A stretch of DNA of 64,000 bases from a virus (Duplodnaviria > Caudoviricetes). The notes beneath the pieces were generated by a model. The model made no database searches and was not told where the DNA came from. It was given only the letters and a program-made list of their open reading frames with translations. The stretch lies in IMG/VR virus record IMGVR_UViG_3300024346_000003; one strand, written 5' to 3'. The position numbers and the translations under genes were made by a program. The stretch's first letter is position 1; each line of letters starts with the position of its first letter. This document shows positions 29,135 through 56,140 of this stretch, one piece after another.

Positions 29135-29181
29135 ATAAGGTAGGTCGGAGTCTACTCTCCTATTACTTTCGTACTAGCCCC
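29135..29181 (-). ncRNA. structured small RNA family copy 1
   Basis: GGGGCTAG-TAC-GAAA-GTA-ATAGG-AGAGTAGACTCC-GACCTACC after own promoter. Confidence 0.65.
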
Positions 29182-29249
29182 TTTCTTTGTTATAACAAAT
29201 ATAGGAATAAAAAATGGTACTACCAAATTATAGTACCATTATTTTTAAT

Positions 29250-29483
29250 TTATTTTGATAAAGTTTTTAGCTCAGCTTTTATGCGTTTTGCCGTTTCACC
29301 TTTCCAAGTGTTAGCGTTACATAGGAAGTAAATAACGATACTTTTACCACTGTCCCAGCCGTACTTATCGTTAACCGATGTTAAGCTTTCCATAGCTTCT
29401 AAATAAGGTTTTGCGGCGTAATTAGGTTTAACCCAATCTTTTTTAATTTCACTTGCGATTTGATAAAGAGGTCTTGCGTTCAT
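29250..29483 (-). CDS. early hypothetical phage protein
   Basis: own promoter; AAKPYLEAM..YG.DSGKSIV.YFL.NANTWKGE motif. Confidence 0.75.
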   Translation of the reverse strand: MNARPLYQIASEIKKDWVKPNYAAKPYLEAMESLTSVNDKYGWDSGKSIVIYFLCNANTWKGETAKRIKAELKTLSK

Positions 29484-29546
29484 AATATACATTGTTTTAA
29501 ATTAGACAATACAAATATAAGTAATTTATTTCATATTTCCAAATAA

Positions 29547-29801
29547 TTACACAATTACTTTATTGTTATTTTCCCAAGCCCCCATATCTTTTGATTTATA
29601 GATTTTAAACCAATCGATATTTTGAATATCTTTTGAATCAACTAATTTACATGATAGATTAAATAATGAATGTGGCATTCTCCAATTAAGGGCATACCTA
29701 GATTTAATTGAATCTGATGCATTTTTAATCCATGTATGAAACAATTCTGTTCTTGTTTCAATATCATTAGCACCATTGAATATTTCCTCTGCGTTAAACA
29801 T
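29547..29801 (-). CDS. early hypothetical protein
   Basis: ATG after promoter module. Confidence 0.7.
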   Translation of the reverse strand: MFNAEEIFNGANDIETRTELFHTWIKNASDSIKSRYALNWRMPHSLFNLSCKLVDSKDIQNIDWFKIYKSKDMGAWENNNKVIV

Positions 29802-29900
29802 AATATATTGTTTTAAATTAGACAATACAAATATAAGAATACTATTTCAATTATCCTAATTATTTAACAAAAAAAAAGGGACTTTTTGTCCCCTTTAATT

Positions 29901-30176
29901 TTAGCTTTGTCCTTGTCGATAATTGTTACAATGGTTTCTATCAAATAGTTTATTTAATGTTTTGGTATGTTTTGTTTTTTTATGGTGTTTTTTATAGTTA
30001 AACCCATTTTTAGGTTTATCTTTTTTGATTTTAAAATTCTCAAAGATAATTGGTTTATCCTTTATTGAAATTTTGGTCACTATTGAATTTTCGATTTTTG
30101 TAACGTTTAGCATTTCAGTTGCTAACAATTGTGTAGTAAAAAACGACACTAACAAGAACATAATTAAATTTTTCAT
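29901..30176 (-). CDS. secreted/basic hypothetical protein
   Basis: signal-peptide-like N-terminus, Lys/His-rich tail. Confidence 0.65.
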   Translation of the reverse strand: MKNLIMFLLVSFFTTQLLATEMLNVTKIENSIVTKISIKDKPIIFENFKIKKDKPKNGFNYKKHHKKTKHTKTLNKLFDRNHCNNYRQGQS

Positions 30177-30239
30177 TTTTAAACGATTTAAATTAGACAT
30201 GAAACAAAGATAAGTAATTTATTTTAATCTACCAAACTT

Positions 30240-30410
30240 TTAGTAAGTTTTTTTTGATTTATTTTGACAATAAAAAGCATCAATAAATGTAGTTAAACCT
30301 ACAAGCATTCCAAATACTGAAATTGCACCAAGAATTGGTTCGTTAACATAAGCGCACAATGTGAACAAAGTTGTTGATAATACTAAAGTAATTAAAGAGA
30401 TAGTTTTCAT
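30240..30410 (-). CDS. 56-aa membrane protein (not in ORF track)
   Basis: hand translation MKTISLITLVLSTTLF..., two hydrophobic segments, own promoter. Confidence 0.65.
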   Translation of the reverse strand: MKTISLITLVLSTTLFTLCAYVNEPILGAISVFGMLVGLTTFIDAFYCQNKSKKTY

Positions 30411-30510
30411 AATGTATGTATTTTAATTAGACAATACAAATATAAGTAATTTATTTCAATCCACCAAATAAAATAGGATAATTATTTTATTTATTTTAAT
30501 CTTTTTTTTT

Positions 30511-30562
30511 ATAAGGTAGGTCGGAGTCTACTCTTCTGCTACCTTTTTGAAGTATCAGCCCC
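30511..30562 (-). ncRNA. structured small RNA family copy 2
   Basis: GGGGCTGA-TAC..GTA-GCAGA-AGAGTAGACTCC-GACCTACC after own promoter. Confidence 0.65.
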
Positions 30563-30630
30563 TTTTGTTAAAACAAAGATAAGGATAAGTTTTCACTTAT
30601 CCAAATCTTTTTTGATTTATTTTTGATTTT

Positions 30631-30900
30631 TTATTCAGCCACTAAAGTTAGTCTGTACTGCTCTAACTTTTCAGCGATGACATCAGCGCCACCCTTAACC
30701 CCGAAGTAACGTTTAACGTCTGTTATCTTCCAAAATCTGTGAGGTTTGATACCTTTGCTATATAACTTGCAATCTCTAATTGAAAGGATTAAGTTCCAAT
30801 ATGCTCTGCTAGTTTCAGCACCATTAACACTCAAACCATTTCCGAAGTCAGCTTCGAATTGCGTTCCTTTGATTTCCTTTAAAAATGTTTCCTTTTTCAT
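30631..30900 (-). CDS. early hypothetical protein
   Basis: ATG after promoter module. Confidence 0.7.
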   Translation of the reverse strand: MKKETFLKEIKGTQFEADFGNGLSVNGAETSRAYWNLILSIRDCKLYSKGIKPHRFWKITDVKRYFGVKGGADVIAEKLEQYRLTLVAE

Positions 30901-31050
30901 AATACGTTGTTTTAAATAGACAATACAAATATAAGTAATCTTTTTCAATATTCCAAATAAAATAGGATAATTATTTTATTTATTTTTTTTACTTAAAAAT
31001 TAGGTTATATCATTTATTATTCTTATCTTTGTTATGTACCAATAAGGTAA

Positions 31051-31096
31051 GGGGCTGAGCCGAGAGGAACAGAAGAGTAGACTCCGTCACGTCTAT
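31051..31096 (+). ncRNA. structured small RNA family copy 3
   Basis: GGGGCTGAG-CC-GAGA-GG-AACAGA-AGAGTAGACTCC-GTCACGTC after TATCTTTG promoter. Confidence 0.65.
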
Positions 31097-31183
31097 ACTT
31101 TTCCTTTGGATAAAAATGTTAAATAATTAGGATATCTTATTTATTATTATTATATTTGTAGTATCAATTTAAAATCAACAATT

Positions 31184-31402
31184 ATGAAAGTATTAAGAGA
31201 AGTTGGTGATGTTAAACTTAATGAAGGTCAACTAATGGCTAAAGGTTTAAATAATCTATACAACGAAAAAACAGGTCAATTATCATTATGGTTTGATAAT
31301 GAAGTTAAGGACTCCTTAATGAAATTACCCGATGATATATTTTTAGAAGTGGTTAGGGTTCATTTTGAACATGCCGAAGTTGGGCAATATAATCCAAACT
31401 AA
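31184..31402 (+). CDS. early hypothetical protein
   Basis: 72-aa ORF after TTAGGA..TATATTTG promoter. Confidence 0.7.
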   Translation: MKVLREVGDVKLNEGQLMAKGLNNLYNEKTGQLSLWFDNEVKDSLMKLPDDIFLEVVRVHFEHAEVGQYNPN

Positions 31403-31456
31403 TATAAAAGTAGATTAAATAAATAAGGGGGCTAAATTGCCCCCTTTCTTTCGTGC

Positions 31457-31476
31457 GTATACACGAATGTGTACAT
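31457..31476. repeat. palindromic (G/A)TATACAC-N4-GTGTA(C/T)AT element, copy 1 of 6
   Basis: also at 36692, 44355, 56542, 57067, 57529. Confidence 0.8.
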
Positions 31477-31488
31477 AGTGGGTGTATG

Positions 31489-31776
31489 CTATTGAGCACA
31501 CAACCCCCAAGGTTCAATCTTATCAATGTTTCGCCCATTCAAATTAAGTTCCTTGCAAATGAATTTAGCAAGTTTCTTATTTCCTGGTGTTCCTTCTGAA
31601 ATTTCACCCGTTTTAATTTGTTGGACAACGTATGACGGTTCCATACCCAATACTCTTGAACAAAACTTAACGTCTTGCCCTAAATAAAAAGACTTAGTTT
31701 TTGTCTTTGTTGATACAACCAACGACCAATTGTGGTCGAATCCGTAATTGCTAGTAATCTTAATTTCTGCGTTCAT
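31489..31776 (-). CDS. early hypothetical protein
   Basis: ATG after promoter module. Confidence 0.7.
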   Translation of the reverse strand: MNAEIKITSNYGFDHNWSLVVSTKTKTKSFYLGQDVKFCSRVLGMEPSYVVQQIKTGEISEGTPGNKKLAKFICKELNLNGRNIDKIEPWGLCAQ

Positions 31777-31850
31777 AATACTTTGTTTTAAAGTGACAAT
31801 ACAAATATAAGAAATAAAAACGACACTACCAAATGATAGTGCCATTATTT

Positions 31851-32081
31851 TTAAATTTCACAAATTCTTATTCCGAATTCCGTTTCAACATAAACTAGTT
31901 CTTCAATAGAACCACCTTTAACTTCATTAATAACGTAATCGAGTTCGTCTATTGGATAATCCCAAAGTGTTACATCTAAAATTTCTTCTGCAAATTCTTG
32001 TATGTCTTCAAGTTTTAGGTTTTTGGTTTCTTCATAACCTATTCGCTTTGCATACTCTTGTAATGAAATAGTTTCTAACAT
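31851..32081 (-). CDS. early hypothetical acidic protein
   Basis: own promoter. Confidence 0.7.
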   Translation of the reverse strand: MLETISLQEYAKRIGYEETKNLKLEDIQEFAEEILDVTLWDYPIDELDYVINEVKGGSIEELVYVETEFGIRICEI

Positions 32082-32339
32082 ACTTTCTAAGTTTTAAAGT
32101 GACAATACAAAGATACAAATATAAAATGGTATTTCCTAATTTAATTCCACTTTTTTTGTTTATGTTTATCTTTTCTTGTATAAGCTTTTTTTGACTTATG
32201 AACAGAATGACGCATTGCTTGTTGCAATTCGTGTTGAGTAATTTCGATAGTTTGAAGTTTCATAACTTATATTGTTTTAATTAGACAATACAAAGATAAG
32301 GATAACTTTTCAATTATCCAAATCTTTTGTTAATTATTT

Positions 32340-32657
32340 TTACATTGTATGAACATCATCTGTTATACTAAACGATATATCTCCATTTGCATCAACCTTG
32401 TTAGACACTAAACGAACAAGTGAGCTTTGCAAGTTACTTAATGAATTATACTTTTCGTATTTAATTCCTTTTGGTGTTCGTGCCCAAAGATTAGCACCCC
32501 ATGAAGAAATTTTGCAATCAGGTTTACCACTTCTATCTGCCAATACAACGTGAAACGTGTAAGGCTTATCAGATAAGTGAATGATAATTTGTTTTGCACC
32601 ATTATATAATTGGTCCAAAGTTACCTCTAATGATTTTAATGTGTTTAACGTTTTCAT
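32340..32657 (-). CDS. early hypothetical protein
   Basis: own promoter. Confidence 0.7.
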   Translation of the reverse strand: MKTLNTLKSLEVTLDQLYNGAKQIIIHLSDKPYTFHVVLADRSGKPDCKISSWGANLWARTPKGIKYEKYNSLSNLQSSLVRLVSNKVDANGDISFSITDDVHTM

Positions 32658-32745
32658 ATCTTATTGTTTTAAAGTGACAATACAAATATACAAAATAAAA
32701 ATGACACTACCAAATGATAGTGCCACTTTTTTTGTCAATCTAAAA

Positions 32746-33138
32746 CTAATCTAAGGTATTAAAGTAATCGTGTTTCATATTTGAAAGTGCTGAATATATG
32801 GTTTGGGAACCAATATCTTTACCTTCTTCATTTTTAATGGGTGTATTTCGTTTCAATATTTCCTTATATTCTTTATCATCGTAAATAAAACTTAAAAAGT
32901 CTATAATATGTCGTTTGCGATAATATTCAATTTGACTTGAAATGAATTTTTCAATAACTCTAGCAATTTGATAACTAGCTACTGTTGAAATAACACCAAT
33001 AATAATAACTAAACTTAACATAGCAAAAGTTGAGCTAAGTTCTATAAAAATTGGTGCGAACGATACTATTGTAATCGTTGTTGAAAATACAGCGATTATC
33101 GCTTTAAGTAATTTTGATTTTTCTACAAAGTTTAACAT
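32746..33138 (-). CDS. early membrane protein
   Basis: two N-terminal hydrophobic helices; own promoter. Confidence 0.7.
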   Translation of the reverse strand: MLNFVEKSKLLKAIIAVFSTTITIVSFAPIFIELSSTFAMLSLVIIIGVISTVASYQIARVIEKFISSQIEYYRKRHIIDFLSFIYDDKEYKEILKRNTPIKNEEGKDIGSQTIYSALSNMKHDYFNTLD

Positions 33139-33209
33139 AATTTTCTGTTTTAATTGGTTAAGACAAATATACAAATATAAAATGATATTTCCTAATTTAT
33201 TTTAAAGTA

Positions 33210-33287
33210 TTATTCATTTCCGTAGCCAGTTATTGATGCAATAATAAAAACCAACCCCATTACGATATAATCAAGTGCTTTTTTCAT
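33210..33287 (-). CDS. 25-aa single-TM micropeptide
   Basis: hand translation MKKALDYIVMGLVFIIASITGYGNE. Confidence 0.55.
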   Translation of the reverse strand: MKKALDYIVMGLVFIIASITGYGNE

Positions 33288-33289
33288 AA

Positions 33290-33373
33290 TTATCTTTTTA
33301 ATTCAATTATTAATGCTCCCACCAATACTGCAATAACTACTATTACTATTGCTGCAATAAAACCTACTACCAT
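33290..33373 (-). CDS. 27-aa single-TM micropeptide
   Basis: hand translation MVVGFIAAIVIVVIAVLVGALIIELKR. Confidence 0.55.
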   Translation of the reverse strand: MVVGFIAAIVIVVIAVLVGALIIELKR

Positions 33374-33376
33374 AAC

Positions 33377-33448
33377 TTAAGATTTTCTAATTTTAGTATC
33401 AAATGCTAAAACCACTGCGAATAAAAATATAACTGCTAATGCGCTCAT
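33377..33448 (-). CDS. 23-aa single-TM micropeptide
   Basis: hand translation MSALAVIFLFAVVLAFDTKIRKS; first ORF after promoter module. Confidence 0.6.
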   Translation of the reverse strand: MSALAVIFLFAVVLAFDTKIRKS

Positions 33449-33492
33449 AACTTTTTGTTTTAAAGTGACAATACAAATATAGGTAAAATATT

Positions 33493-33969
33493 CTACACTT
33501 CCAAATGTTTTACCAATATTTTTTTAATTTGTTTATTGTCACTTCTATCAAACGTATTATTCCATCTACCTTTGTATTTTGACTTAAGCATACTATCTAA
33601 AATAGTAAACGGCATATCAACAGAATGACAATGACTAAAAATTGGGTGCATTGTTAAATCATCGAAAAATCCTTTGCTATCAATATAAAACACTTTCTTT
33701 GATGTTTTAATTGTTACCATTACGTGTGACCAATCTGTTTTGAACAAATCAATTATAGCCTTATTTGCAATATGTCTGTTACTTTCGTAAACGCTATGTT
33801 CACGAACTAATAAAACCAATTCAGGTTTAAACCCTTTCTTAGTCAATACATTGTAAATGTGTTTTGCAACGAAACCACAACCACCACTATTAACATATCT
33901 AACTGAATTATCAATCTCATCGAATGATGATAATAAAGACTTTTTAATTTTAGCATTTAAGAATCCCAT
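33493..33969 (-). CDS. early hypothetical protein
   Basis: NSGGCG and SHVMV motifs, possibly papain-like Cys/His; own promoter. Confidence 0.7.
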   Translation of the reverse strand: MGFLNAKIKKSLLSSFDEIDNSVRYVNSGGCGFVAKHIYNVLTKKGFKPELVLLVREHSVYESNRHIANKAIIDLFKTDWSHVMVTIKTSKKVFYIDSKGFFDDLTMHPIFSHCHSVDMPFTILDSMLKSKYKGRWNNTFDRSDNKQIKKILVKHLEV

Positions 33970-34098
33970 AACTATTTGTTTTAAAGTGACAATACAAATA
34001 TAAGAATATAAAACGATATAACCTAATTTTTAATTAAAATAATTTATCTTATTTTATTAGGATATATCAAATATTTTCCTTACCTTTGTTTTGTCGAT

Positions 34099-34149
34099 GG
34101 GGCTGACACGAGAGTGGTAGTAGAGTAGACTCCTTGGGATACCTACTAC
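34099..34149 (+). ncRNA. structured small RNA family copy 4
   Basis: GGGGCTGA-CAC-GAGA-GTG-GTAGT-AGAGTAGACTCC after TACCTTTG promoter. Confidence 0.65.
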
Positions 34150-34218
34150 AAATTTGAGCCAACAAATAAAAAAGAGGGATTTCTCCCTCTTCTCATCAAC
34201 CAACTTAAAACAACAACT

Positions 34219-34476
34219 TTATACTGCGATAACCCAATCAGTAACCTCCCAATTCACGCTTGATGATACGCTATACCCTTTCTCTCTCAATCTTTGAGCA
34301 ACAATAGGCATATACATATACTCTTCAACACTCCAACCATAGCTTGGTGCACATTGTGCCGTTTCAAACTTGGTAGTTAAATACTCACCCCCTAATCGGC
34401 TTTCAATTCGAGCCATTAATTCATTAATGAATAACTCTTTTCTTTCTTGCGGTGTTAATGTTTTTGTTTCTGACAT
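34219..34476 (-). CDS. early hypothetical protein
   Basis: own promoter. Confidence 0.7.
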   Translation of the reverse strand: MSETKTLTPQERKELFINELMARIESRLGGEYLTTKFETAQCAPSYGWSVEEYMYMPIVAQRLREKGYSVSSSVNWEVTDWVIAV

Positions 34477-34684
34477 AATACTTTGTTTTAATTAGACAAT
34501 ACAAATATAAGAATATAAAACGATATAACCTAATTTTTATTTATCTTTTTCAAGTGAAACATTAAAAATAGTTCCAAATATGTTTTCAAATATTGATTTA
34601 ACATATAAGGTCTCTTTAATAGTTGTCTCATTATAGCACAACTCACCCTCATTATTGATATATAGATTTGAATTTTCCATTTTA

Positions 34685-35386: not shown

Positions 35387-36154
35387 TTACTTTACTGAAA
35401 ATTCAGCTTTGTAAATTTTAACCAAGTGGTCATAAAACTCACCCTCATTTTCACTGAATTTCATGTGGGCAATTTTAAGTGCTTCTGACGTTTTTAAAAT
35501 TGCTTCTGACATTCTATTGTAATCTTTACAAAGTCGCATAATTTTGTATAAACTTCTGCGAACAAATGCCTTGTCAGGTATTGCATTTTTAACTAACATA
35601 ACCGCATCCAATAATTCCATGCTATCAGCCTCATTAACAAAAGTCATCTCACCACTAGTGAATACTTTACGGTTATTTGAACCAATAAAGATAAATAACA
35701 AGTCAGTCATAGTTAAACCTGTTTTTGTTTTTAATTCACTCATGATTATATATTCACGAATACCATTTGATTGGTATGAATCCATGTAGATTTTTGGTGA
35801 CCAACCCGCAGATGTATTATTTAATGTAGCAATGTACTTTGTTAAATTCAATTTTGAGTCAGATAACAACTCAACAATCAAAACATGAATAGGTAGTTCA
35901 AGTCGTTGTGCTGCTAAAAATCGATGTTGACCGTCAGCAATATAGTATTCAATTTTACCACTAATTGATTTAGTTTTAACTACTGTAATAACCACAGAAC
36001 CCGAACCAAACTTTTTAAAACTATCAACAAGTTTATTTACGTGTGATTCACGTGTGTTTCTGTTTGTACCTTTAAGTAGTTTGTACTTTGAAAAGTCAGT
36101 ACAATTTGAAATAAATTCAACAAATACCGATAATGGAAGATTTTTGTTACTCAT
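35387..36154 (-). CDS. ParB/Srx N-terminal-like (DGQHR) domain protein
   Basis: NRNTRESHVNKLVDSF...YIADGQHRFLAA..LELPI. Confidence 0.7.
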   Translation of the reverse strand: MSNKNLPLSVFVEFISNCTDFSKYKLLKGTNRNTRESHVNKLVDSFKKFGSGSVVITVVKTKSISGKIEYYIADGQHRFLAAQRLELPIHVLIVELLSDSKLNLTKYIATLNNTSAGWSPKIYMDSYQSNGIREYIIMSELKTKTGLTMTDLLFIFIGSNNRKVFTSGEMTFVNEADSMELLDAVMLVKNAIPDKAFVRRSLYKIMRLCKDYNRMSEAILKTSEALKIAHMKFSENEGEFYDHLVKIYKAEFSVK

Positions 36155-36306
36155 AACGTTTATGTTTTAATAATTAGACAATACAAATATAAGTAAACTA
36201 TTTCAATCTACCAAATAAAATAGGATAATTATTTATTTATTTTTTTGTATAAAAATTAGGATATATCATTTATTATCCTTACCTTTGTTATGTACCCGAT
36301 AGGTAT

Positions 36307-36355
36307 GGGCTGACACTCACAAGGTGGTAGTAGAGTAGACTCCGTCACGTCTATA
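36307..36355 (+). ncRNA. structured small RNA family copy 5
   Basis: GGGCTGA-CAC-TCACAAG-GTG-GTAGT-AGAGTAGACTCC-GTCACGTC. Confidence 0.65.
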
Positions 36356-36430
36356 TATGACCTGGACCAAAAAATACATTACAGTAAACTATTTAGTGTA
36401 AACTAAATTAGGAAATATGGTTTTATATTA

Positions 36431-38467: not shown

Positions 38468-38525
38468 AATATTTTGTTTTAATTAGACAATACAAATATA
38501 ATAATATAAAATGATATATCCTAAT

Positions 38526-39009: not shown

Positions 39010-39445
39010 TATGGGAGGTGGTTGTACATCCACCCCCCATTACTCCTTGTTCCATACCAAGTGCGCACCCGATACTTTATTTTCCGCTGAACAAAGCGTT
39101 TCCATTTAAGTCCCATAATCGGCAACCAAGAGCACTCATCTTGTTAGAGTTACGCTTCAAGAGGTCATCTCGTTAGAGTTACGCATTGAGACTATCTCAT
39201 CTCGTTAGAGTTACGCATAACACTTATCATCTTACCCCACACAGAATGTGGTTACGAATCAATCCATTTCCTTTACTTACGTAAAACAGTGATGGGTGTG
39301 TCAGAGGCTGTATCTCGTCTTGTTAGGTCTAAGAGGCTGTATCTCGAACCTGTTACATTATCGCTAGGCTGTTCTCATCTTGTTAATGATTGAAGCTACC
39401 GAGGACTTAAACTTCTACTATAGTATGTTAAAGAACGTTTTCCTT
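39010..39445 (-). ncRNA. candidate ~400-nt repeat-rich non-coding RNA
   Basis: own promoter (TATCTTTG at ~39454-39461), no ORF, elevated GC, ~7 TAAC(A/G)AGA(T/C)GA-like motifs, 3' GGTGG..CCACC hairpin. Confidence 0.55.
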
Positions 39446-39516
39446 TTGTTTAACAAAGATAAGTAATTTATTTTAAACTACCAAATCTTTTTGCAATTAT
39501 TTTTAATTTTTTTTTG

Positions 39517-39619
39517 TAGTCAGGACAGGATTCGAACCTGTGAATCCTCGGACTAAATACTAGACTACCACCTGAGGACCTCTTTCTAGTTAGCGTTAAT
39601 CCATCTCCGCCACCTGACT
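39517..39619 (-). ncRNA. tRNA-like RNA with non-canonical expanded middle (copy A)
   Basis: acceptor AGTCAGG/CCTGACT-A, T arm ACAGG-TTCGAAT-CCTGT, D-like arm; no canonical anticodon arm; 103 nt. Confidence 0.7.
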
Positions 39620-39706
39620 ATTTGTTATTCAAAGAACTTTAACAAAGATAAGTAATTTATTTTAAACTACCAAATCTTTTTGCAATTATTTTTAATTTTT
39701 TTTTTG

Positions 39707-39781
39707 TAGTCAAAATAGGATTCGAACCTATGTAACGATGTCTCTAATAGGACATCTGCTTTGCCACTCGGCCACTTGACT
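39707..39781 (-). ncRNA. tRNA-like RNA with 6-bp stem/8-nt anticodon-like loop (copy B)
   Basis: AGTCAAG/TTTGACT-A acceptor, GATGTC-CTATTAGA-GACATC arm, ATAGG-TTCGAAT-CCTAT T arm. Confidence 0.7.
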
Positions 39782-39867
39782 ATTTGTTATTCAAAGAACT
39801 TTAACAAAGATAAGTATTTTATTTCAATCTACCAAATCTTTTTGCAATTATTTTTAATTTATTTTTT

Positions 39868-39926
39868 GTGAGCGTTATGGAATCGAACCATACCGTATGA
39901 CTCGCCATTGCTAACCCTAGACGCTC
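39868..39926 (-). pseudogene. degenerate minimal tRNA-like element
   Basis: T arm TATGG-TTCGATT-CCATA and GAGCGT/ACGCTC acceptor-like stem; D/anticodon arms not recognisable. Confidence 0.4.
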
Positions 39927-39949
39927 TAGGCGTGCACACCTATTTGTAG

Positions 39950-40070
39950 TAGTCAGGACAGGATTCGAACCTGTATCAACAGAATGTGTAACTACCTGTT
40001 ATATTAAGCATTGTAGATTCGAACCACTCACTCTCTAGGCCTGTTGACTTACCAATTTGTCCACCTGACT
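39950..40070 (-). ncRNA. tRNA-like RNA with long insert (copy C)
   Basis: same acceptor/T arms; TCAACAG..CTGTTGA stem encloses ~65 nt including a second GGTTCGAATC; 121 nt. Confidence 0.7.
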
Positions 40071-40156
40071 ATTTGTTATTCAAAGAACTTTAACAAAGAT
40101 AAGTAAACTTTTCCAATCTACCAAATATTTTTGTAATTATTTTTAATTTATTTTTG

Positions 40157-40228
40157 TGACCCGACCAAGATTCGAACTTGGAATAGAAGATTAGAAATCT
40201 TCTGTGATATCCCTTTCACCATCGGGCC
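40157..40228 (-). tRNA. tRNA-Arg (UCU)
   Basis: cloverleaf; anticodon arm GAAGA-TTTCTAA-TCTTC; T arm CCAAG-TTCGAAT-CTTGG. Confidence 0.9.
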
Positions 40229-40291
40229 AAATAAGGGTTGTTCGAACTCCCTAAAAACCTCACCTAAGTTTTTTCTATGGATATAGAAAAA

Positions 40292-40368
40292 TGGTGGTCC
40301 AACTTGGACTCGAACCAAGGACTTCAACATTATGAGTGTTGCACTCTAACCAACTGAGTTATAAGACC
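40292..40368 (-). tRNA. tRNA with CAU anticodon (elongator Met or Ile2)
   Basis: cloverleaf; CAACA-CTCATAA-TGTTG; encoded CCA end. Confidence 0.9.
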
Positions 40369-42324: not shown

Positions 42325-42570
42325 TTATTTTGAACAATCTTTACATAAATCTTGGTCATTTATATCAAATACCATTTCACCCTTGATAAAACCACCACCA
42401 CAATTATCACAACAATACTCATTCTCATATTGTACCCATTCCTCCTCAGGTAAATATCCTATAAGGTATTTTCTTGGTACAAATGATAATAGTTCGTCTA
42501 TTACAGTAAAATCACCACCATTAATATCGTTTTGTATTACCTCAATTACTCTATCAATTAATTTGCTCAT
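42325..42570 (-). CDS. early hypothetical protein with C-terminal CxxC..CxxC
   Basis: CDNC...CKDC; own promoter. Confidence 0.65.
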   Translation of the reverse strand: MSKLIDRVIEVIQNDINGGDFTVIDELLSFVPRKYLIGYLPEEEWVQYENEYCCDNCGGGFIKGEMVFDINDQDLCKDCSK

Positions 42571-42719
42571 AATATATTGTTTTAAAGTTATACCACAAAG
42601 ATAAGGATAACTAATTACCCACACAACATACTATAGTTAGCATTTAAAATAATATAAAATAATATTAAATAAATTAGGATATGTCATTTATTATCCCTAC
42701 ATTTGTTTTGTCGATGGAC

Positions 42720-42769
42720 GGGCTGACACTCACAAGGTGGTAGTAGAGTAGACTCCGACCTACCTTATA
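42720..42769 (+). ncRNA. structured small RNA family copy 6
   Basis: GGGCTGA-CAC-TCACAAG-GTG-GTAGT-AGAGTAGACTCC-GACCTACC. Confidence 0.65.
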
Positions 42770-42888
42770 TTTTTTTTTAAATATATAAAAAAAATTTGCA
42801 AAGGTACAAAATAAAATCGACCTATGCAAATTTTTAATGAAAAAGTTATTAACAAAATGGTGGGGGTATTTTTCAACCCCCTTTCCAT

Positions 42889-43776
42889 TTATGCCATTAC
42901 CAAGCCTAACTTGTCAAGGGCAAACTGTAACCCTTGTTCGTTAGTTCGGTAGTTAGTACCCGTCATCATGCTTTCCTCACGTCCATTCTCTCTACGTGGT
43001 GCTGACTTTTCGTGTGTAGTCCATGAAGTAACCCCACTAAACAAACCAAACAAGTTGTCACCCTTCTGATTTGTCTCCTTCTTAATGTGACCATACAACG
43101 TCTCCATTGCATTCAAAGAACGTGTTGACAATTCACTTTCCGTCTTGATAGACATAGTCTTGTCAAACCCTAAAATGTGACGTACCATTTCGTCCGCCAA
43201 ACCTTTTGTCAAAGGTGTTGATTGGAAATGCTTATACGTTTCAGTCAATTTAAGACTCTCTAACAACGCCATTTCAATAAGGTAAGGTATTTCCTTAATA
43301 CGTTGTGTTAAACTCGCTGTATGGCGAAGTTTTGACTGTCCACTTTTGTAGAACTTAAAGAACTGATTAGAACATGACATAACCAATTCACCAATACCAA
43401 CTGATAAACCCGTAGAACCGTCATTACTGTCGATAATAGTAACATATCTTTTGATACGTTCGTCACCAACTTTTGACATTCCGTCAATTCCCAATTGAAG
43501 GAACACTTTACGTCCTCCATTCAAAGCACCCGCTTTTGTTACAGATAACTCACCAAACCCTTTAATACCGTTAAGTACTAATTCCACAATCTCATCGTTT
43601 TGAGACACTGTATACCCTTCTTTAACAGAATTGATACACTCACCCGTCTTGTCATTGAACAAGCCGAAAAATGGCGTTTCTTTGCCCGTAGCAGAAAGCA
43701 ATCTTTCTTTCTCAATACGGAAATCCAAGTTGTGCGCTACTAAGATTTCATTCACTTTGTTGTTTACTTCGCTCAT
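42889..43776 (-). CDS. DUF932/TIGR03299-like phage/plasmid protein
   Basis: YTVSQNDEI, GALNGGRKVFLQL, SNDGSTGL, CSNQF, RHT, LFGLFSGVTSWTTH. Confidence 0.75.
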   Translation of the reverse strand: MSEVNNKVNEILVAHNLDFRIEKERLLSATGKETPFFGLFNDKTGECINSVKEGYTVSQNDEIVELVLNGIKGFGELSVTKAGALNGGRKVFLQLGIDGMSKVGDERIKRYVTIIDSNDGSTGLSVGIGELVMSCSNQFFKFYKSGQSKLRHTASLTQRIKEIPYLIEMALLESLKLTETYKHFQSTPLTKGLADEMVRHILGFDKTMSIKTESELSTRSLNAMETLYGHIKKETNQKGDNLFGLFSGVTSWTTHEKSAPRRENGREESMMTGTNYRTNEQGLQFALDKLGLVMA

Positions 43777-43961
43777 AATAAAAAGTTTTAAATGATTAAC
43801 AGTACAAATATAATAATACTATTCCATATAAACAAATAAAAAACAATATATTTTTAATTTTTTTTTCATACCTTAATAATTGCGCACGCATGTATACAAA
43901 ATAAAAATGATATATCCTAATTTTTTTTGTTAAATTATCGCATATCGCAATACGCAATAAT

Positions 43962-44010
43962 GGCCTACCAAGGAGTCTACTCTCTCACATGCTTGCGACA
44001 TGCGACCCGT
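43962..44010 (-). ncRNA. structured small RNA family copy 7 (divergent)
   Basis: GGGTCG-CATG..CATG-TGAG-AGAGTAGACTCC-TTGG after own promoter. Confidence 0.6.
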
Positions 44011-44097
44011 CTTATTGACAATACAAATATAAAACAAAAAAACCACATATCCTAATAATACATGGTTTTTTTATTAACTATTTTATTCGTATCTTTG

Positions 44098-50378: not shown

Positions 50379-50394
50379 AATTAATTGATTTAAA

Positions 50395-50482
50395 TAAAAG
50401 GCTAGCACAATGGGTGGTCTTTTGTAGATTTCATGTGCTAGCCTCTCGGTGTCTAATCTAAAACATAAGCGTGCCACCCTAG
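50395..50482 (-). promoter_or_regulatory. structured leader / attenuator-like RNA
   Basis: 10-bp hairpin GGCTAGCACA/TGTGCTAGCC plus T tract; competing GGGTGG/CCACCC and TAGATT/AATCTA pairings. Confidence 0.5.
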
Positions 50483-50556
50483 TCTTTTTATTCGTGTAAG
50501 TATTCGCTTATTAATTAGACATTACAAAGATACAAATTGCTTTTCATTAAACCTAA

Positions 50557-50883: not shown

Positions 50884-50895
50884 AATAATATTGTT

Positions 50896-51273
50896 TTATA
50901 TTTTGTAGATTCCATAATCTACGGTTACCAAAGTATCTACAGGTAACCCATCTGCATTCTCACCATTTAACATCCAATGTGGTGTGACCCGTGGATTGTA
51001 ACTAACTCGCTCCCCTGTTATATCAGCTTGTACAAAATTACTGCTCCATGCAATGGTTAGTTCTTTACAAAGAACCCATGCGCAAACTACCTTCTCCCCT
51101 CCATCAAATATCTTCTGAGCGGTCTTCTTTTGATTCTTAAGGATGCACTCATGCATCAATAACTGAACTTCAGATGGGAAATGGTATTCAATTTTACCAT
51201 CAGGATACTGAACCTTCCATTTCATGAAATTCTTACCCCTAGCTAAATTGAATCTTACTTTGAAACTTTTCAT
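50896..51273 (-). CDS. early hypothetical phage protein
   Basis: VRFNLARGKNFMKWKV, VSYNPR motifs. Confidence 0.7.
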   Translation of the reverse strand: MKSFKVRFNLARGKNFMKWKVQYPDGKIEYHFPSEVQLLMHECILKNQKKTAQKIFDGGEKVVCAWVLCKELTIAWSSNFVQADITGERVSYNPRVTPHWMLNGENADGLPVDTLVTVDYGIYKI

Positions 51274-51342
51274 AACTTATATGTTTTAATTAGACCTTAT
51301 AAAGATAAGAATAATAATCCACAACCCCAAATAAATCATGGA

Positions 51343-51624
51343 TTATTTTACAACGTATTTATCTAAATTAGTATTATAAATAAGTTTGAAATTATGACTT
51401 GTTGCAAACGAAGTTATTTCTTTTTTTATTTTCTTTAATTCAGAACATTTTTTAGCATATTCTTTTGCCAATTCATCACGATATTTTGGTGGTGCATCAA
51501 CCCAATATTCAGCTATTTTAAATTCGACAAAATATCTAGCATCACATATATCGTTACCCAAATAACCAAATGATTCTAATTTGACTTTAATTTTATCGTG
51601 TAATGTATTTAATGAATTTTCCAT
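51343..51624 (-). CDS. early hypothetical protein
   Basis: 93-aa ORF. Confidence 0.65.
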   Translation of the reverse strand: MENSLNTLHDKIKVKLESFGYLGNDICDARYFVEFKIAEYWVDAPPKYRDELAKEYAKKCSELKKIKKEITSFATSHNFKLIYNTNLDKYVVK

Positions 51625-51633
51625 AAGATTATT

Positions 51634-51990
51634 TTATACCAAAACAATTCCTAAATCATCAAGTGTAATACAGTCACTTTCAATTTGGTCGCCACTGTGC
51701 CATTTGTTTTGTGCATAATAGTATACACTATTATTATACACAACTAATCTTTCAACATCAATTTTCCAGCTTTCAATATCCTCATCATCATCGTTAAGGT
51801 ATTCAACACTACCGTCTAAATCAATATTAATACTATTAATGAATTTATTGTTGTTAACAAGTTCCATTGCGTTCTTAATGTTATCGACATCTGTTGGTGT
51901 TAAATTGATTTTTAACTTATCAATTTCCATAGAATCTGAATACTCCATTGAATGAAATGCGATACCTTTTTCAATTACTAAATTTTCCAT
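51634..51990 (-). CDS. early hypothetical protein
   Basis: 118-aa ORF. Confidence 0.65.
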   Translation of the reverse strand: MENLVIEKGIAFHSMEYSDSMEIDKLKINLTPTDVDNIKNAMELVNNNKFINSINIDLDGSVEYLNDDDEDIESWKIDVERLVVYNNSVYYYAQNKWHSGDQIESDCITLDDLGIVLV

Positions 51991-52008
51991 GATAATATAT
52001 TTTAATTG

Positions 52009-52203
52009 TTATTTATCTTTTGCTATTACAAAATAAGAATTTAATTCTTCTTCTTGGTCATCCTGTGTTCCATCTTCATTATGTAATACAGGAAATTTTA
52101 AATATAAAAACTCCCAACCATCCTCATAAGAATCAAACTCATGAGCATTGAAACAATGATTATCAAACTCATCAACAATAATAAATTTATTAGACTTTTT
52201 CAT
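52009..52203 (-). CDS. early hypothetical protein
   Basis: own promoter. Confidence 0.65.
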   Translation of the reverse strand: MKKSNKFIIVDEFDNHCFNAHEFDSYEDGWEFLYLKFPVLHNEDGTQDDQEEELNSYFVIAKDK

Positions 52204-52245
52204 AAGGATATGTTTTAATTATTAGACATTATAAAGATACAAAAA

Positions 52246-52788
52246 CTATTTCACTTTTCCAAATAAAGTTTCAACTAATTTTGATTTATCTGTATGGAAT
52301 AAGTTAATCGCATTCGCTATTGAAATAGCTACACTACTATCTTCCTCCACCTCATCCAAATGCCAATAGCAAACGTGTGTAGGTTCCTTGTCGTCACCAT
52401 TGTCAATGTAGATATTTACACTCTCATTATCGATGGCCAACTTCATTCTATTTAAATTGAGGCCAAACATAACAGACTCCAATTCATCGCCAACAATTTG
52501 AAACCCTTGCTCATTGATAGAAACTACACCAAAACTTTCAAGTGAATCACCAATGGTCAAGTTACCCTCATCATCAGATACCAATTCATATATGCATAAC
52601 TGAAATGAATTAACCCCATTGTAAAATTCGTCAAACCAAATATTAATATCGTATTCTATATTTGTTTCCTCATCTTTGAATGTATCCCAATGGTCACTTT
52701 CCATACCCGTAACATCGATAACATATTCTTTACCTAAAAAGGTAAATGATAATCGTTTGTTTCTAGTGTTTAAAATTGCTGTTTCCAT
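52246..52788 (-). CDS. early hypothetical acidic protein
   Basis: own promoter. Confidence 0.7.
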   Translation of the reverse strand: METAILNTRNKRLSFTFLGKEYVIDVTGMESDHWDTFKDEETNIEYDINIWFDEFYNGVNSFQLCIYELVSDDEGNLTIGDSLESFGVVSINEQGFQIVGDELESVMFGLNLNRMKLAIDNESVNIYIDNGDDKEPTHVCYWHLDEVEEDSSVAISIANAINLFHTDKSKLVETLFGKVK

Positions 52789-52874
52789 GATAATATTGTT
52801 TTAATTATTAGACAATACAAATATAATAAATAAAAGTGACACTACCAAATTATAATGTCACTTTTATTGTCTAA

Positions 52875-53612
52875 TTAAACAATAGCTTCTAATACGAAAC
52901 CACTAGTTAAAGCTTCTTTGTTTTTTTCAGCACCACCTTTGCCCGTAATGTTTTTGAATTTCAATCCAACAATTACATTCTTATCATCTAAGAAACGCAA
53001 GTCGTTATCATCACCATTGATAACCTTATAACCGTTATACGTTTCAGGTAACTTTGTAAATACCATTGCTACATTGTGACCCGCTTGTAATAAGCTTAAA
53101 GATATTTCATGATTTTCCTCGGAACGTGAAAATGTTAAATGATAATTCTTTGGTAACTCCTTTGCAAATCTAGTGTAATTCTTTGTGTAGTCATAGAATT
53201 GAACATTAGGAAACGTATCAAAGATTGTTTTACCATTGGACGTTTTTTGCTTCTCAAATGAAATATCACTTGTACCATTCAAACGTATTGCCAGGATAAA
53301 ATCAGTATCAGCAACTTTCTTTTCTAATTTGCCAATTTCAACTACCAACTTATCTAAAAATGCAATTCTATCTGAAAGATAAAATTCTGTTTTTTCAGTT
53401 CTACCATTCTTAACACTTTGGTAAATTCCACCAAAACCACTTTCGAATAAACATGCACTAGCACAACCTTTACTCGCCATGGGACAAATGTTTACCCCCT
53501 TAGAATTTTGTGTAAATGGTGACATGTACAAAATGAAAGTCTTGTAACCTTTCTTTTCACCTTTAATCGTTTTAGCATTGTTAAACGATAATAAACTTTT
53601 CTTGTAACTCAT
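52875..53612 (-). CDS. phage Gp88-like protein (CxxxxxxCxxxC)
   Basis: ICPMASKGCASACL, RLNGTSDI, FYDYTK, LTFSRSE, GDDNDLRFLD. Confidence 0.75.
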   Translation of the reverse strand: MSYKKSLLSFNNAKTIKGEKKGYKTFILYMSPFTQNSKGVNICPMASKGCASACLFESGFGGIYQSVKNGRTEKTEFYLSDRIAFLDKLVVEIGKLEKKVADTDFILAIRLNGTSDISFEKQKTSNGKTIFDTFPNVQFYDYTKNYTRFAKELPKNYHLTFSRSEENHEISLSLLQAGHNVAMVFTKLPETYNGYKVINGDDNDLRFLDDKNVIVGLKFKNITGKGGAEKNKEALTSGFVLEAIV

Positions 53613-53715
53613 AATAATATGTTTTAATTAATTAGACAATACAAATATAAAACAAAAAAGTGAGACTTCCAAATAAAATCTCACTTTTTTTAAAATTAAT
53701 TATATACTATACTAT

Positions 53716-54792
53716 TTAACCCTTTCCATTTCTTACATCATGCAAATAATCAATCTCATCATTTGTACTTTGAGCAAACAATTGCTTTAACATTTGCTCC
53801 TCCATACCAACTTGTCGTAAAATGTATTCCATGGTTTCACCGTCAACCTCAATCACTTTCAACTTACCAATAATATCCCTTACCAAATCATGTGTATGTT
53901 GTGTTTGACATAATACTGTTGGTGCATCAGCAAACGTATTTTTTCGCCAATCCATATCAGCCTCTTCATAGGTACCATCTTTTTTCCAAAAACCTACTAC
54001 CAAAATATCATCACATCCACCCATGGTAATATTTATTGATTCACAAAACTTACCATACTCTACCAAATCAAATTTAACAATATCGAATAAGTAATTCTCA
54101 TCGTCAATAACTTCACCTTCACCATAACCAATTACCTCAATTACATTTCCGTCCTTGTCGCAACTAATATGCCCCCATGAACTTTCAAATGACATGAATT
54201 CCTCTCTAATAATTGGAACCTTGCTCAAATCAATTTGTTTCTTTTTCACAATTGAAATAAACTTATTATCCAATACTATATAATTTGTCTTACCAAATGG
54301 AAAACCATTGTCATTTTCAGTAATAATAACCCCCAAATCAAGCAACTCATGAAATTCACTTTCATAAACATCACCAATGATTTCTGTATTATCAGCATTA
54401 CCAATTGTATAAACTTCTTCGGGAAAATCATATTCTATATTTCCAACTACAATTGGTTTAAGTTCTTCTTTTGGGAACAAATTATACCAATTATCAACTA
54501 TGGCCATATCATCATTCAACCCCAATGCAATTCTAACATCGTCAGAACAATTCTGAATTAAATCATGGTCATTAACACTCATGTTAATTGGTAGTGACTT
54601 ATCAACGTCCTCAGTGTATTTAGAAATTGACGTATTAATCTCTTTCGCACTACGAACCGCACATTCAATGCGTTTCTCGACCTCATCAATTTTAGCACCC
54701 AAATCATTCAATGCTATATCAACTTCATCATCCTTTTGGAATAAATCCCAACGCTTCATTGTTTCAACCAATTCATTAAATTGCTTTTTCAT
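53716..54792 (-). CDS. early hypothetical protein
   Basis: ATG after promoter module. Confidence 0.75.
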   Translation of the reverse strand: MKKQFNELVETMKRWDLFQKDDEVDIALNDLGAKIDEVEKRIECAVRSAKEINTSISKYTEDVDKSLPINMSVNDHDLIQNCSDDVRIALGLNDDMAIVDNWYNLFPKEELKPIVVGNIEYDFPEEVYTIGNADNTEIIGDVYESEFHELLDLGVIITENDNGFPFGKTNYIVLDNKFISIVKKKQIDLSKVPIIREEFMSFESSWGHISCDKDGNVIEVIGYGEGEVIDDENYLFDIVKFDLVEYGKFCESINITMGGCDDILVVGFWKKDGTYEEADMDWRKNTFADAPTVLCQTQHTHDLVRDIIGKLKVIEVDGETMEYILRQVGMEEQMLKQLFAQSTNDEIDYLHDVRNGKG

Positions 54793-54842
54793 AATATATG
54801 TTTTAATAATTAGACAATACAAATGTAAGTAAAAGAATTCAC

Positions 54843-55097
54843 TTATCCTAATTCTTCAACATTTTTATTTGTTGCGTCATAAGATACAATTCTGAAATCA
54901 CCAAATAAGATACCTTTATAGTATACAGCACTATTGTTAAATCTTATCAAATCAACCTCACCACCATCTACTACCAATCGCAAATGACCATATGTCCATT
55001 GGAAACTATCTATCGGGCCAACCACAATAAATGTGTCATCAATGTGATTCTCTTTTGTCTCAGGATTTAACCTATTGAAAAATTCTATCTGTAACAT
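54843..55097 (-). CDS. early hypothetical protein
   Basis: 84-aa ORF. Confidence 0.6.
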   Translation of the reverse strand: MLQIEFFNRLNPETKENHIDDTFIVVGPIDSFQWTYGHLRLVVDGGEVDLIRFNNSAVYYKGILFGDFRIVSYDATNKNVEELG

Positions 55098-55115
55098 AAT
55101 AATATAGTTTTATAT

Positions 55116-55343
55116 TTAATCATTAATATTTTCCCAACCTTCCAACTCAGTTAATTCCATACCAATTGGTCTTAACCCATAAGGCTCGGCATTCAAATAG
55201 TAATCAAAGGTATAACCCAAAGGCTCTAACTCATCTAACAATCTACCTAACTCATGGTAATCATCAGCATCCTCATCAAATGTTACCAATACGTCTTGAA
55301 CTTCACTAGGAATCAATTCGGGTGTTTCAAATAAATCTTTCAT
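55116..55343 (-). CDS. early hypothetical protein
   Basis: LGYTFDYYL..EPYGL motif; own promoter. Confidence 0.7.
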   Translation of the reverse strand: MKDLFETPELIPSEVQDVLVTFDEDADDYHELGRLLDELEPLGYTFDYYLNAEPYGLRPIGMELTELEGWENIND

Positions 55344-55402
55344 AATATATGTTTTAATAATTAGACAATACAAATATAAGAATATAAAATGATATATCCT
55401 AA

Positions 55403-55939
55403 TTAATTTTCAACAAATTTTAAAAGAAATTTATCACTAAACTTACCCCCATTATGTGCCTTGCAACATTTAGCACACGCATACGTTCTTGATACCTTTC
55501 TATGCTTCGGACTTTCATGCCCACAATTATCACATGTAAGACTATATTTCGCTTTAGGTAAATTAACAGTTTCACCATCATAACATCTATTACCATCACA
55601 ACCAATCTGCTTTGCAATAGATTTCCAATTATGACCATGACCCCTACCATTTTTAATTCCATAAACCTCAACAGAAAATGCATGTGCCATTTCATGTAAT
55701 ATAGTATTCTGTATTCTACTATCTATCTTATCCAAATTCTCACTACATAAAGGTAATGATAAACTAATCTTCTTTTGAATATAATGACAAGTACCAAATG
55801 CACGTTTCCTATTGTTAAACTCAAATCGATAACCCAAACCTTTAGCACTCACACTATGTGTACCACTATATGTAGTAAACGTAAATTCTTTTGACATCAA
55901 CTCATCAACCAATACTCTTACATCATTTAACGTTCCCAT
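55403..55939 (-). CDS. SprT-like metalloprotease
   Basis: TILHEMAHA, GHGHNWK, C-terminal CDNC/CAKC zinc ribbon. Confidence 0.85.
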   Translation of the reverse strand: MGTLNDVRVLVDELMSKEFTFTTYSGTHSVSAKGLGYRFEFNNRKRAFGTCHYIQKKISLSLPLCSENLDKIDSRIQNTILHEMAHAFSVEVYGIKNGRGHGHNWKSIAKQIGCDGNRCYDGETVNLPKAKYSLTCDNCGHESPKHRKVSRTYACAKCCKAHNGGKFSDKFLLKFVEN

Positions 55940-56091
55940 AACTTATATTGTTTTAATTAGACATTACAAATATAATAATACTATTCCATATATCCTAATT
56001 TTTATACAAAAAAAATTTAAAATTATTTTACAAAATAATTAGGTTATCTCATTTATTATCCCTACCTTTGTTATGTACCCGATAGGGATAC

Positions 56092-56140
56092 GGGCTGATA
56101 CTCAAAAGGTATCTGGAGCGTAGACTCCAACCTACCTATA
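56092..56140 (+). ncRNA. structured small RNA family copy 8
   Basis: GGGCTGA-TAC-TCAAAAG-GTA-TCTGGAGCGTAGACTCC-AACCTACC after TACCTTTG promoter. Confidence 0.6.

Follow-up and report, generated by a model that had tools for sequence, protein, structure and literature searches.

The stretch of DNA analysed here (the window) comprises 64,000 nucleotides (nt) of the IMG/VR virus record IMGVR_UViG_3300024346_000003 (Duplodnaviria; Caudoviricetes), a large phage; the G+C content of the stretch is 30%, and its genes include those for thymidylate synthase, a ClpB-like ATPase, NAMPT and a ParB-like protein as well as several transfer RNAs (tRNAs). Within 29-56 kb, a region dense in small minus-strand open reading frames (ORFs), nearly all of them individually promoted, lie all eight copies of a short element with a core of about 40 nt, consisting of GG, a hairpin and AGNGUAGACUCC, dispersed at spacings of 0.5-12 kb. 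We conclude that these eight loci very probably encode a small non-coding RNA, some 70-100 nt long, belonging to a real structured RNA gene family that is widespread and uncatalogued in Bacteroidota phages.

The original prediction had listed eight copies from inspection of the DNA, and this count is borne out. GTAGACTCC has exactly eight matches in the window (29147 -, 30523 -, 31077 +, 34125 +, 36335 +, 42748 +, 43972 - and 56120 +), and a covariance model built from homologues, run with filters off over the 64 kb, recovered the same eight with 41-78 bits. Allowing up to one mismatch gave 11 matches to GTAGACTCC, a number reached in none of 100 shuffles. Beyond the eight copies, the covariance model matched the 64 kb just at two overlapping weak sites in 5029-5078 (16.7-18.7 bits, E 0.075-0.22), neither of them a credible copy.

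A pattern scan of IMG/VR gave 96 loci, about half of which are chance matches in high-GC contigs, while the low-GC matches are without exception complete in architecture and promoter, and contigs with 3-7 copies are frequent among them. With the covariance model, 73 members were identified in viral contigs, Tenacibaculum phage Larrie and four contigs of metagenome-assembled genomes (MAGs; together the first set), and at least 99 additional members in marine and freshwater metagenome contigs (the second set), giving at least about 170 homologues in total among the matches listed; the pooled analyses below cover 172 members (73 and 99). Larrie (Cbastvirus, 77.5 kb; ON950054.1) is the one cultured carrier, with four copies clustered within 2.6 kb of unannotated intergenic DNA (16.9-19.5 kb), and was the sole match when one element was used as a blastn query. 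A megablast search with 20 kb of the window against INPHARED phages returned no relative, and a 3-kb stretch of Larrie used as query matched only Larrie itself. A tail-inclusive 19-mer searched against 185,579 species genomes matched four MAG contigs and no others, all of them phage-like, multi-copy and with the same promoters (of the three MAGs, two have the copies on one contig each and one has them on two contigs), and the covariance model gave no match in 150 other Bacteroidota genomes. The matches are thus confined to phage-like DNA in the genomes searched, suggesting that the family is phage-borne. As had been predicted, the element does not correspond to a known family: in Rfam 15, searched at the gathering score and at E<=10, only tRNA matches reached threshold, and the weak matches overlap no element. 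Literature searches by sequence and keyword gave nothing relevant to the element. The sequence GGUAGUAGAGUAGACUCC (42748-42756 and every other copy) is much like the conserved hantavirus genome terminus UAGUAGUAGACUCC, and the occurrences of GTAGACTCC in about 1,000 papers proved to be the terminal primer UAGUAGUAGACUCC, which we take as coincidence.

As originally predicted, every copy in the window is preceded, 8-30 nt upstream, by a TAnnTTTG box. This is the Bacteroidota -7 promoter consensus (PMC10309648), and TTAGGATAT or a TTTGG element lies about 20 nt further upstream; the RNA genes display the layout -33 TTTG/TTAGG, -7 TAnnTTTG. The motif lies ahead of all eight window copies and all 73 first-set members, with the element starting 8-30 nt after the -7 box, and the element was never found without an upstream host-type promoter in the first set; a looser motif search across both sets placed a promoter at 140 of the 172 members. 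Independent promotion of the RNA copies thus appears well supported at the level of motifs. The same promoter cassette lies ahead of the tRNA genes and of about 45 ORFs, between which and the promoter stands the conserved leader GTCTAATTAAAACA...ATG. The -7 subclasses differ, protein genes having mostly TATATTTG and the RNA copies, tRNA genes and convergent promoters mostly TAYCTTTG. The cassettes themselves, about 45 near-identical units of about 50 nt combining an early promoter and a leader (AATTAGGATATATCATTTTATATTCTTATATTTGTATTGTCTAATTAAAACA...ATG), are spread over 28900-56200 on both strands (e.g. 34502-34533, 38493-38524 and 55371-55402), precede almost every small ORF of that region and recall the promoter-early stem-loop (PeSL) cassettes of T4-type phages.

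Alignment of the members revealed the 5'-to-3' order of a usual 5' hairpin (P0), an invariant GG, a hairpin of 6-9 bp with free loop sequence (P2), a purine-rich linker of 4-6 nt (R-A-G/A-N), the invariant box GUAGACUCC, an exchangeable 8-nt tail and YUAUA. P0 is more stable than in shuffles (-2.7 versus -1.2 kcal/mol, p = 5e-19, 172 members), reaches at least 4 bp in 135 of the 172 members against 88 expected, and lies 1-4 nt from P2. The loops of P2 are GNRA, CACAA-type or up to about 20 nt long, and the GNRA loops predicted for three window copies are present. All compensatory changes originally proposed for the hairpin (TAC/GTA, CAC/GTG, CC/GG and CATG/CATG) were found, and covariation is strong on a larger scale: in the viral set, 90% of P2 cells are paired, with 115 double-change cells versus 37 +/- 5 in shuffles, and in the independent metagenome set 85% are paired, with 147 double-change cells versus 51, a level reached by none of 500 shuffles in either set. 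Controls in which P2 was slid gave 30-55% pairing. Stems as different as CUG/CAG, UCG/CGA, CAG/CUG, UUG/CAA, CGAUAC/GUAUCG and CC(U)GAUC/GAUCGG interchange, the loop-length changes are not multiples of three, and the element has no ORF. G.U pairs outnumber A.C pairs by 118 to 32, showing that only the transcribed strand can form the helix, which favours an RNA and argues against a double-stranded DNA site. P2 is the sole covarying helix, a mutual-information scan giving no other helix or pseudoknot. Of the shared 5' GGG proposed originally, GG alone is universal, the third G giving way to C or U in many homologues. GG could pair with the terminal CC of the box (GGG:CUCC gives at most 2-4 bp), both sides being invariant. 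A variable base sits inside the otherwise invariant AGNGUAGACUCC, and the separate invariant GG lies across P2.

The 3' module consists of the 8-nt tail, YUAUA and a U-run, or of an ordinary hairpin terminator. The tails fall into the classes RACCUACC, (G/A)NCACGUC, AUGGUNC and UUGG..., which turn up again and again in phages unrelated to one another and are not tied to particular P2 types. Without the usual tail, copies 4 and 7 run into ordinary strong hairpins, which suggests that the tail module mainly makes the 3' end. Complementarity between the tail and upstream sequence is weak (-7.1 versus -6.2 kcal/mol, p = 2e-4) and its register varies; the tail is followed by a U-run in 44% of members, an A-run in 17% and neither in 39%. 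Taken together, the two covarying sets, the common promoter type in the homologues, the G.U excess and the Rfam result uphold the original proposal of an independently promoted, structured phage small RNA (sRNA) family with a constant scaffold and exchangeable parts. The coordinates of the eight copies and of the convergent promoters are collected in Table 1.

Table 1. Coordinates of the eight RNA copies and of the opposing promoters in the window (-7 boxes and RNA ends are predicted from motifs).
Feature	Coordinates	Strand	5' hairpin, GG, P2 and box	3' end	-7 box	Context
RNA copy 1	29134..29180	-	GG 29180-29178; P2 29177-29171 / 29166-29160, GAAA loop; box GUAGACUCC 29155-29147	tail GACCUACC and UUAUA to 29134, then A-run	TATATTTG 29196-29203	
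Convergent -7 box opposing copy 1	29097..29104	+			TACCTTTG	
RNA copy 2	30510..30561	-	GG 30561-30559; P2 30558-30552 / 30542-30536; box 30531-30523	tail GACCUACC and UUAUA to 30510, then A-run	TATCTTTG 30574-30581	next: same-strand promoter and 56-amino-acid ORF
RNA copy 3	31037..31098	+	5' hairpin UACCAAUAAGGUA; GG from 31052; P2 31055-31061 / 31066-31072, GAGA loop; box 31077-31085	tail GUCACGUC and UAUAC	TATCTTTG 31024-31031	divergent from gene promoter at 30926
RNA copy 4	34094..34192	+	GG from 34100; P2 34103-34109 / 34114-34120, GAGA loop; box 34125-34133	atypical tail UUGGGAUACCUACUAC, then strong bidirectional terminator hairpin ~34172-34191; fold z -3.8	TACCTTTG 34081-34088	
RNA copy 5	36293..36356	+	5' hairpin; GG from 36307; P2 36310-36316 / 36324-36330; box 36335-36343	tail GUCACGUC and UAUAU	TACCTTTG 36280-36287	divergent from ParB-like gene promoter at 36184
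RNA copy 6	42711..42778	+	5' hairpin GUCGAUGGAC; GG from 42720; P2 42723-42729 / 42737-42743; box 42748-42756	tail GACCUACC and UUAUA, then U9	TACATTTG 42698-42705	
Convergent -7 box opposing copy 6	42799..42806	-			TACCTTTG	between DUF932 gene terminator and element
RNA copy 7	43932..44018	-	5' hairpin GUCAAUAAGAC; GG 44008-44006; P2 44005-43999 / 43991-43985; box 43980-43972	atypical tail UUGGUAGGCC, then hairpin ~43962-43932; fold z -3.25	TATATTTG 44024-44031	
RNA copy 8	56076..56141	+	5' hairpin UACCCGAUAGGGAUA; GG from 56092; P2 56095-56101 / 56109-56115; box 56120-56128, linker GGAGC	tail AACCUACC and UAUAU	TACCTTTG 56063-56070	divergent from SprT-like gene promoter at 55967
Convergent -7 box opposing copy 8	56174..56181	-			TATCTTTG	predicted transcript (56181-56000 -) antisense to element

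The claim that no ORF follows the elements was half right: copies 1, 2, 3 and 7 have a same-strand ORF within 80-190 nt, in each case with its own promoter. Among the 73 first-set members, about 28 have a same-strand ORF after them, likewise individually promoted, and about 28 point towards the 3' end of an ORF on the opposite strand; as a rule, a divergent gene promoter lies about 100 nt upstream. In Larrie, all annotated genes lie on one strand and three of the four RNA copies on the other. This random orientation relative to the neighbouring genes therefore suggests stand-alone RNA genes. Two of the Larrie copies (16921-17069) stand tail to tail on opposite strands, 3 nt apart, so that their 3' regions would be convergently transcribed.

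Convergent promoters had been predicted at copies 1 and 6; both are present, and the list was incomplete, copy 8 having one too. About 15% of the family, mostly members with a U-run and including these three window copies, face such a promoter at fixed spacing, with its -7 box about 42 nt past CUCC. The predicted transcript would be antisense to the whole element and would carry 12-25 nt of complement to other copies. At copy 1 it is predicted to run for about 135 nt through the element to a hairpin and U-run near 29207-29245; ending (29097-29245 +) at this bidirectional terminator hairpin, it may be a discrete anti-RNA. At copy 6 the predicted antisense transcript (42806-42600 -) heads towards the ORF at 42325-42570, for which there is a separate proximal promoter as well. 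At least six other contigs show synteny with the copy-6 arrangement, in which the RNA gene lies downstream of a DUF932 gene, and a cluster of 17 contigs has it again; the same convergent arrangement is found in contigs L011, L018, L025, L036 and L100.

The early region encodes ParB-like (35387-36154), DUF932 (42889-43776) and SprT/ArdC-like (55403-55939) proteins, all on the minus strand, to which relatives add DUF1281 and DUF6011. Genes for DUF932, ParB-like and SprT/ArdC-like proteins typify anti-restriction islands and the leading regions of mobile elements; such neighbours fit a role in host takeover or counter-defence and do not prove it. The recurrent neighbours of the family are DUF932, GP88, ParB-like, SprT-like, DUF1281 and DUF6011, and no RNA-binding family was found among the neighbour gene clusters. 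A phage protein partner, sought by neighbourhood, was rejected, given that the recurrent families are not RNA-binding, GP88 is common in unrelated phages and only two proteins (SprT-like and ThyA) are shared between the window and Larrie.

Several other features of the window were observed. A cluster of tRNA-like genes (39514-40368 -, and a further one at 61909-62021 -) has an individual promoter and conserved leader for each gene. One of them (39706-39781) has an 8-nt anticodon loop (ARAGORN anticodon 'atta'), two are overlong (39950-40070, 121 nt; 61909-62021, 113 nt), several share the acceptor AGUCAGG/CCUGACU and have no encoded CCA, and near 39514-39620 there is only a weak call resembling transfer-messenger RNA (tmRNA). 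On the minus strand at 39100-39454, a promoter with its -7 box ending at 39454 precedes a stretch of about 350 nt without an ORF, possibly another non-coding RNA, in which three direct repeats of 27 nt (39136-39223, spacing 29-32) are found together with a further pair of repeats (39298-39346). The thymidylate synthase ORF (6190-7443 -) is 417 amino acids long and aligns in several stretches to about 280 profile positions of phrog_160, which points to a large insertion, perhaps an intein or additional domain.

Own promoter, absence of an ORF and conservation across genomes are all found for the element, as in stand-alone sRNA genes, and by analogy it would work most like phage-encoded stand-alone small RNAs. 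The prophage sponge or anti-sRNAs AgvB and AsxR of enterohaemorrhagic Escherichia coli (EHEC) are likewise short ORF-less genes with their own host-type promoter, hairpins at both ends, a conserved single strand and several copies per genome. Here, however, the conserved part is invariant across phages sharing almost no proteins, is interrupted by a variable base and is paired with GG across a hairpin, and it has no evident RNA target. To our knowledge, Bacteroidota-type hosts have no Hfq-type systems. RNA anti-CRISPRs (viral solitary repeat units) and pseudo-ToxI are also small structured viral RNAs with their own promoter, which work by mimicry and need dosage; in our case, neither the 401 Bacteroidota genomes sampled nor the species-genome scan yielded a CRISPR repeat or tandem antitoxin with the box. 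HK022 put and lambda nut sites resemble the element in lying directly downstream of an early promoter with two hairpins and a conserved single-stranded box, whereas here half of the copies do not point into an operon, the element is often succeeded by a terminator-like run and its sequence does not resemble theirs. The dozens of near-identical early-promoter cassettes between small early ORFs are shared with the PeSL of T4-type phages, whose stem-loop is a terminator upstream of the promoter, acting at the level of DNA or transcription, in contrast to the hairpin here, which is downstream, predicted to be transcribed, covarying and joined to an invariant box. Finally, orphan structured-RNA motifs (Rfam 'Gene; sRNA') are similarly defined by covariation and conserved junction nucleotides and are phage-associated, while the present element is missing from Rfam 15 and is unusual in its multi-copy deployment with one promoter per copy. 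We describe it as a new RNA family with an unusual deployment, in which each of 4-8 copies has one host-type promoter, in either orientation, sometimes with an antisense promoter.

As to what the RNA does, the explanation that we favour, without reaching even confidence in it as a whole, is a stand-alone, abundant early RNA with decoy or sponge action. Host RNA polymerase would make the RNA from injection onward, and eight strong promoters would ensure a high dose. Meeting at the base of P2, GG and AGNGUAGACUCC would form a fixed docking site for a host-conserved component, either a protein or a ribonucleoprotein, which the RNA would titrate or redirect during takeover or counter-defence, with the P0 hairpin and the 3' module serving stability and 3'-end formation. 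The RNA probably acts in trans as a free RNA; the decoy mechanism itself is a tentative proposal that we consider rather unlikely to be right in full. The box is identical in the window and in Larrie, which share only two proteins, and there are no RNA-binding neighbours, which suggests a partner on the host side rather than the phage side. The variable base within AGNGUAGACUCC together with the invariant GG across the hairpin likewise points to a recognition surface rather than a linear pairing seed. More specifically, the core could be a counter-defence or takeover RNA deployed in 4-8 individually promoted copies, either as a high-affinity decoy for a Bacteroidota-conserved host protein or as an aptamer or ribozyme fold (e.g. 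a sponge for an immune signalling nucleotide), an assignment that is doubtful.

Several observations weigh against an abundant decoy RNA. The analysis found no partner, and the promoters and RNA ends are motif-based predictions. With a U-run in just 44% of members and no obvious terminator in 39%, a discrete short RNA is not assured. The convergent promoters of about 15% of the family hint at an antisense role or one at the level of transcription, for which the decoy idea gives no explanation, and internal pairing does not account for the conserved tail classes (RACCUACC and CACGUC) or the YUAUA box. Single-sequence folds are ordinary, with z between -1.3 and +0.7 for six of the eight copies (4 and 7 being the exceptions).

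Among the alternatives, a base-pairing riboregulator survives best and is nevertheless unlikely. Here the single-stranded box, with or without the tail, would be a seed for RNA targets, among them the transcripts antisense to copies 1, 6 and 8 or some conserved RNA of the host, leading to RNase III cleavage or a translation block. The 5' hairpin, conserved single-stranded stretch and 3' hairpin or U-run are a classical sRNA architecture, and the convergent promoters at three of the eight window copies, with their fixed spacing, would yield transcripts carrying the exact complement; however, an antisense promoter is missing in 85% of members, and neither the window nor the complete Larrie genome has any other exact reverse complement of the 9-nt box GUAGACUCC. 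A seed should also not be interrupted by a variable base, nor would it need the invariant GG. The best ribosomal RNA match (9 bp with one G.U, 16S h43) is at chance level (about 0.25 expected) and absent in two of five genomes, while UAGAC can form just 5 bp with GUCUA at the 5' end of the early mRNAs of the window, whose leader is not conserved in distant carriers. The guide-like function suggested originally is weakened, as applied to the tail, because unrelated phages share both main tail classes in conserved form and no other exact complement of the box is present in the window or in Larrie; the tails themselves were not searched for complements.

A cis-acting co-transcriptional element, which we judge quite improbable, would be a put/nut-like antiterminator or an attenuator or riboswitch-type aptamer with terminator, altering the polymerase from which it emerges or setting whether transcription continues, and thereby controlling downstream genes or silencing opposing promoters by transcriptional interference. 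Its position always 8-30 nt from the start site and its two hairpins 1-4 nt apart recall put, A-run variants without a terminator precede same-strand genes, and U-run variants tend to face convergent promoters. Half of the copies (three of four in Larrie), however, point at the 3' ends of opposite-strand genes and therefore have no operon to antiterminate or regulate, and the same-strand genes downstream of others are individually promoted. In the commonest subtype the tail can pair with GUAG(AC) or with the 3' arm of P2, giving mutually exclusive folds, but this tail/upstream pairing is weak and variable in register (-7.1 versus -6.2 kcal/mol) and the alternative helix has no covariation support. 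Membership of the put/nut group was rejected since the promoter-proximal position is found without the head of a same-direction operon, about half of the copies facing opposite-strand gene ends; a riboswitch or attenuator is not supported, given that about half of the copies have no co-directional gene and that the tail pairing is weak and variable, and the core shows one covarying helix and an invariant junction with no support for a second helix or pseudoknot.

A new small-molecule aptamer or self-cleaving ribozyme is distinctly unlikely; in it, the invariant unpaired nucleotides around the covarying helix would make up an active site or a ligand pocket, and such a pocket could sponge a host immune signalling nucleotide. 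Invariant junction nucleotides, a sequence-free paired helix, a free loop and a size of about 40 nt are the conservation pattern typical of such RNAs, and many strongly promoted copies would suit a stoichiometric sponge. Yet no Rfam riboswitch or ribozyme matched even at E<=10, one helix is supported with no covarying pseudoknot or second helix, and there is no sign of a ligand or cleavage site. The known self-cleaving ribozymes (hammerhead, twister, pistol, hatchet and HDV-like) were rejected likewise, with no match at E<=10 and, by inspection, a misfit of the CUGA...GAAA-like strings to the hammerhead core. A tRNA/tmRNA-like acceptor mimic (for alanyl-tRNA synthetase, AlaRS, through G3.U70) was also rejected, as ARAGORN and Rfam call none of the loci, the third G is not conserved and the end reads RACC rather than NCCA.

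We consider it very improbable that the element acts at the level of DNA, as a phage RNA polymerase promoter, a protein operator or a recombination cassette like the PeSL of T4, with transcription being incidental. Larrie does encode a T7-like RNA polymerase (31230-33581), GTAGACTCC-N8-YTATA is superficially like a 23-bp promoter of a single-subunit RNA polymerase ending in TATA, and the surrounding promoter cassettes are highly repetitive; against this, a single strand is foldable (G.U 118 versus A.C 32) and the element is always behind a host-type promoter, never alone. A T7-like promoter in particular was rejected, as Larrie has just four copies, in 2.6 kb, three of which oppose every gene. 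That the element mimics an RNA of host immunity, as a solitary CRISPR-repeat-like RNA (RNA anti-CRISPR) or as a type III toxin-antitoxin pseudo-antitoxin, can hardly be credited: the short hairpin with conserved flanking single strands, own promoter and no spacer is like viral solitary repeat units, and the early region around the elements has DUF932, ParB-like and SprT/ArdC-like genes, but AGNGTAGACTCC is no commoner than its reversed control in 401 Bacteroidota genomes and never in arrays or tandem runs there, the covariance model found nothing in the 150 other Bacteroidota genomes, and the 19-mer matched only the four phage-like MAG contigs among the 185,579 species genomes. A ToxI-like type III antitoxin was rejected as the copies are dispersed by 0.5-12 kb and individually promoted, with no tandem runs in the 401 host-group genomes.

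Bacteroidota phages, infecting Flavobacteriia and relatives, are abundant in oceans and lakes, and we are aware of almost nothing that is known about their non-coding RNAs. The present family is notable in being widespread (at least about 170 instances), restricted to phage-like DNA, kept across phages that share almost no proteins and multi-copy in an early, anti-defence-like region. If the decoy, aptamer or ribozyme reading is true, it would represent a new class of RNA. The small core suits structural and biochemical work, and Larrie, a cultured phage with a known host genus, makes the question directly testable. The invariant surface of 9-12 nt across divergent phages implies a conserved host target, and this target would reveal a phylum-specific route of takeover or counter-defence.

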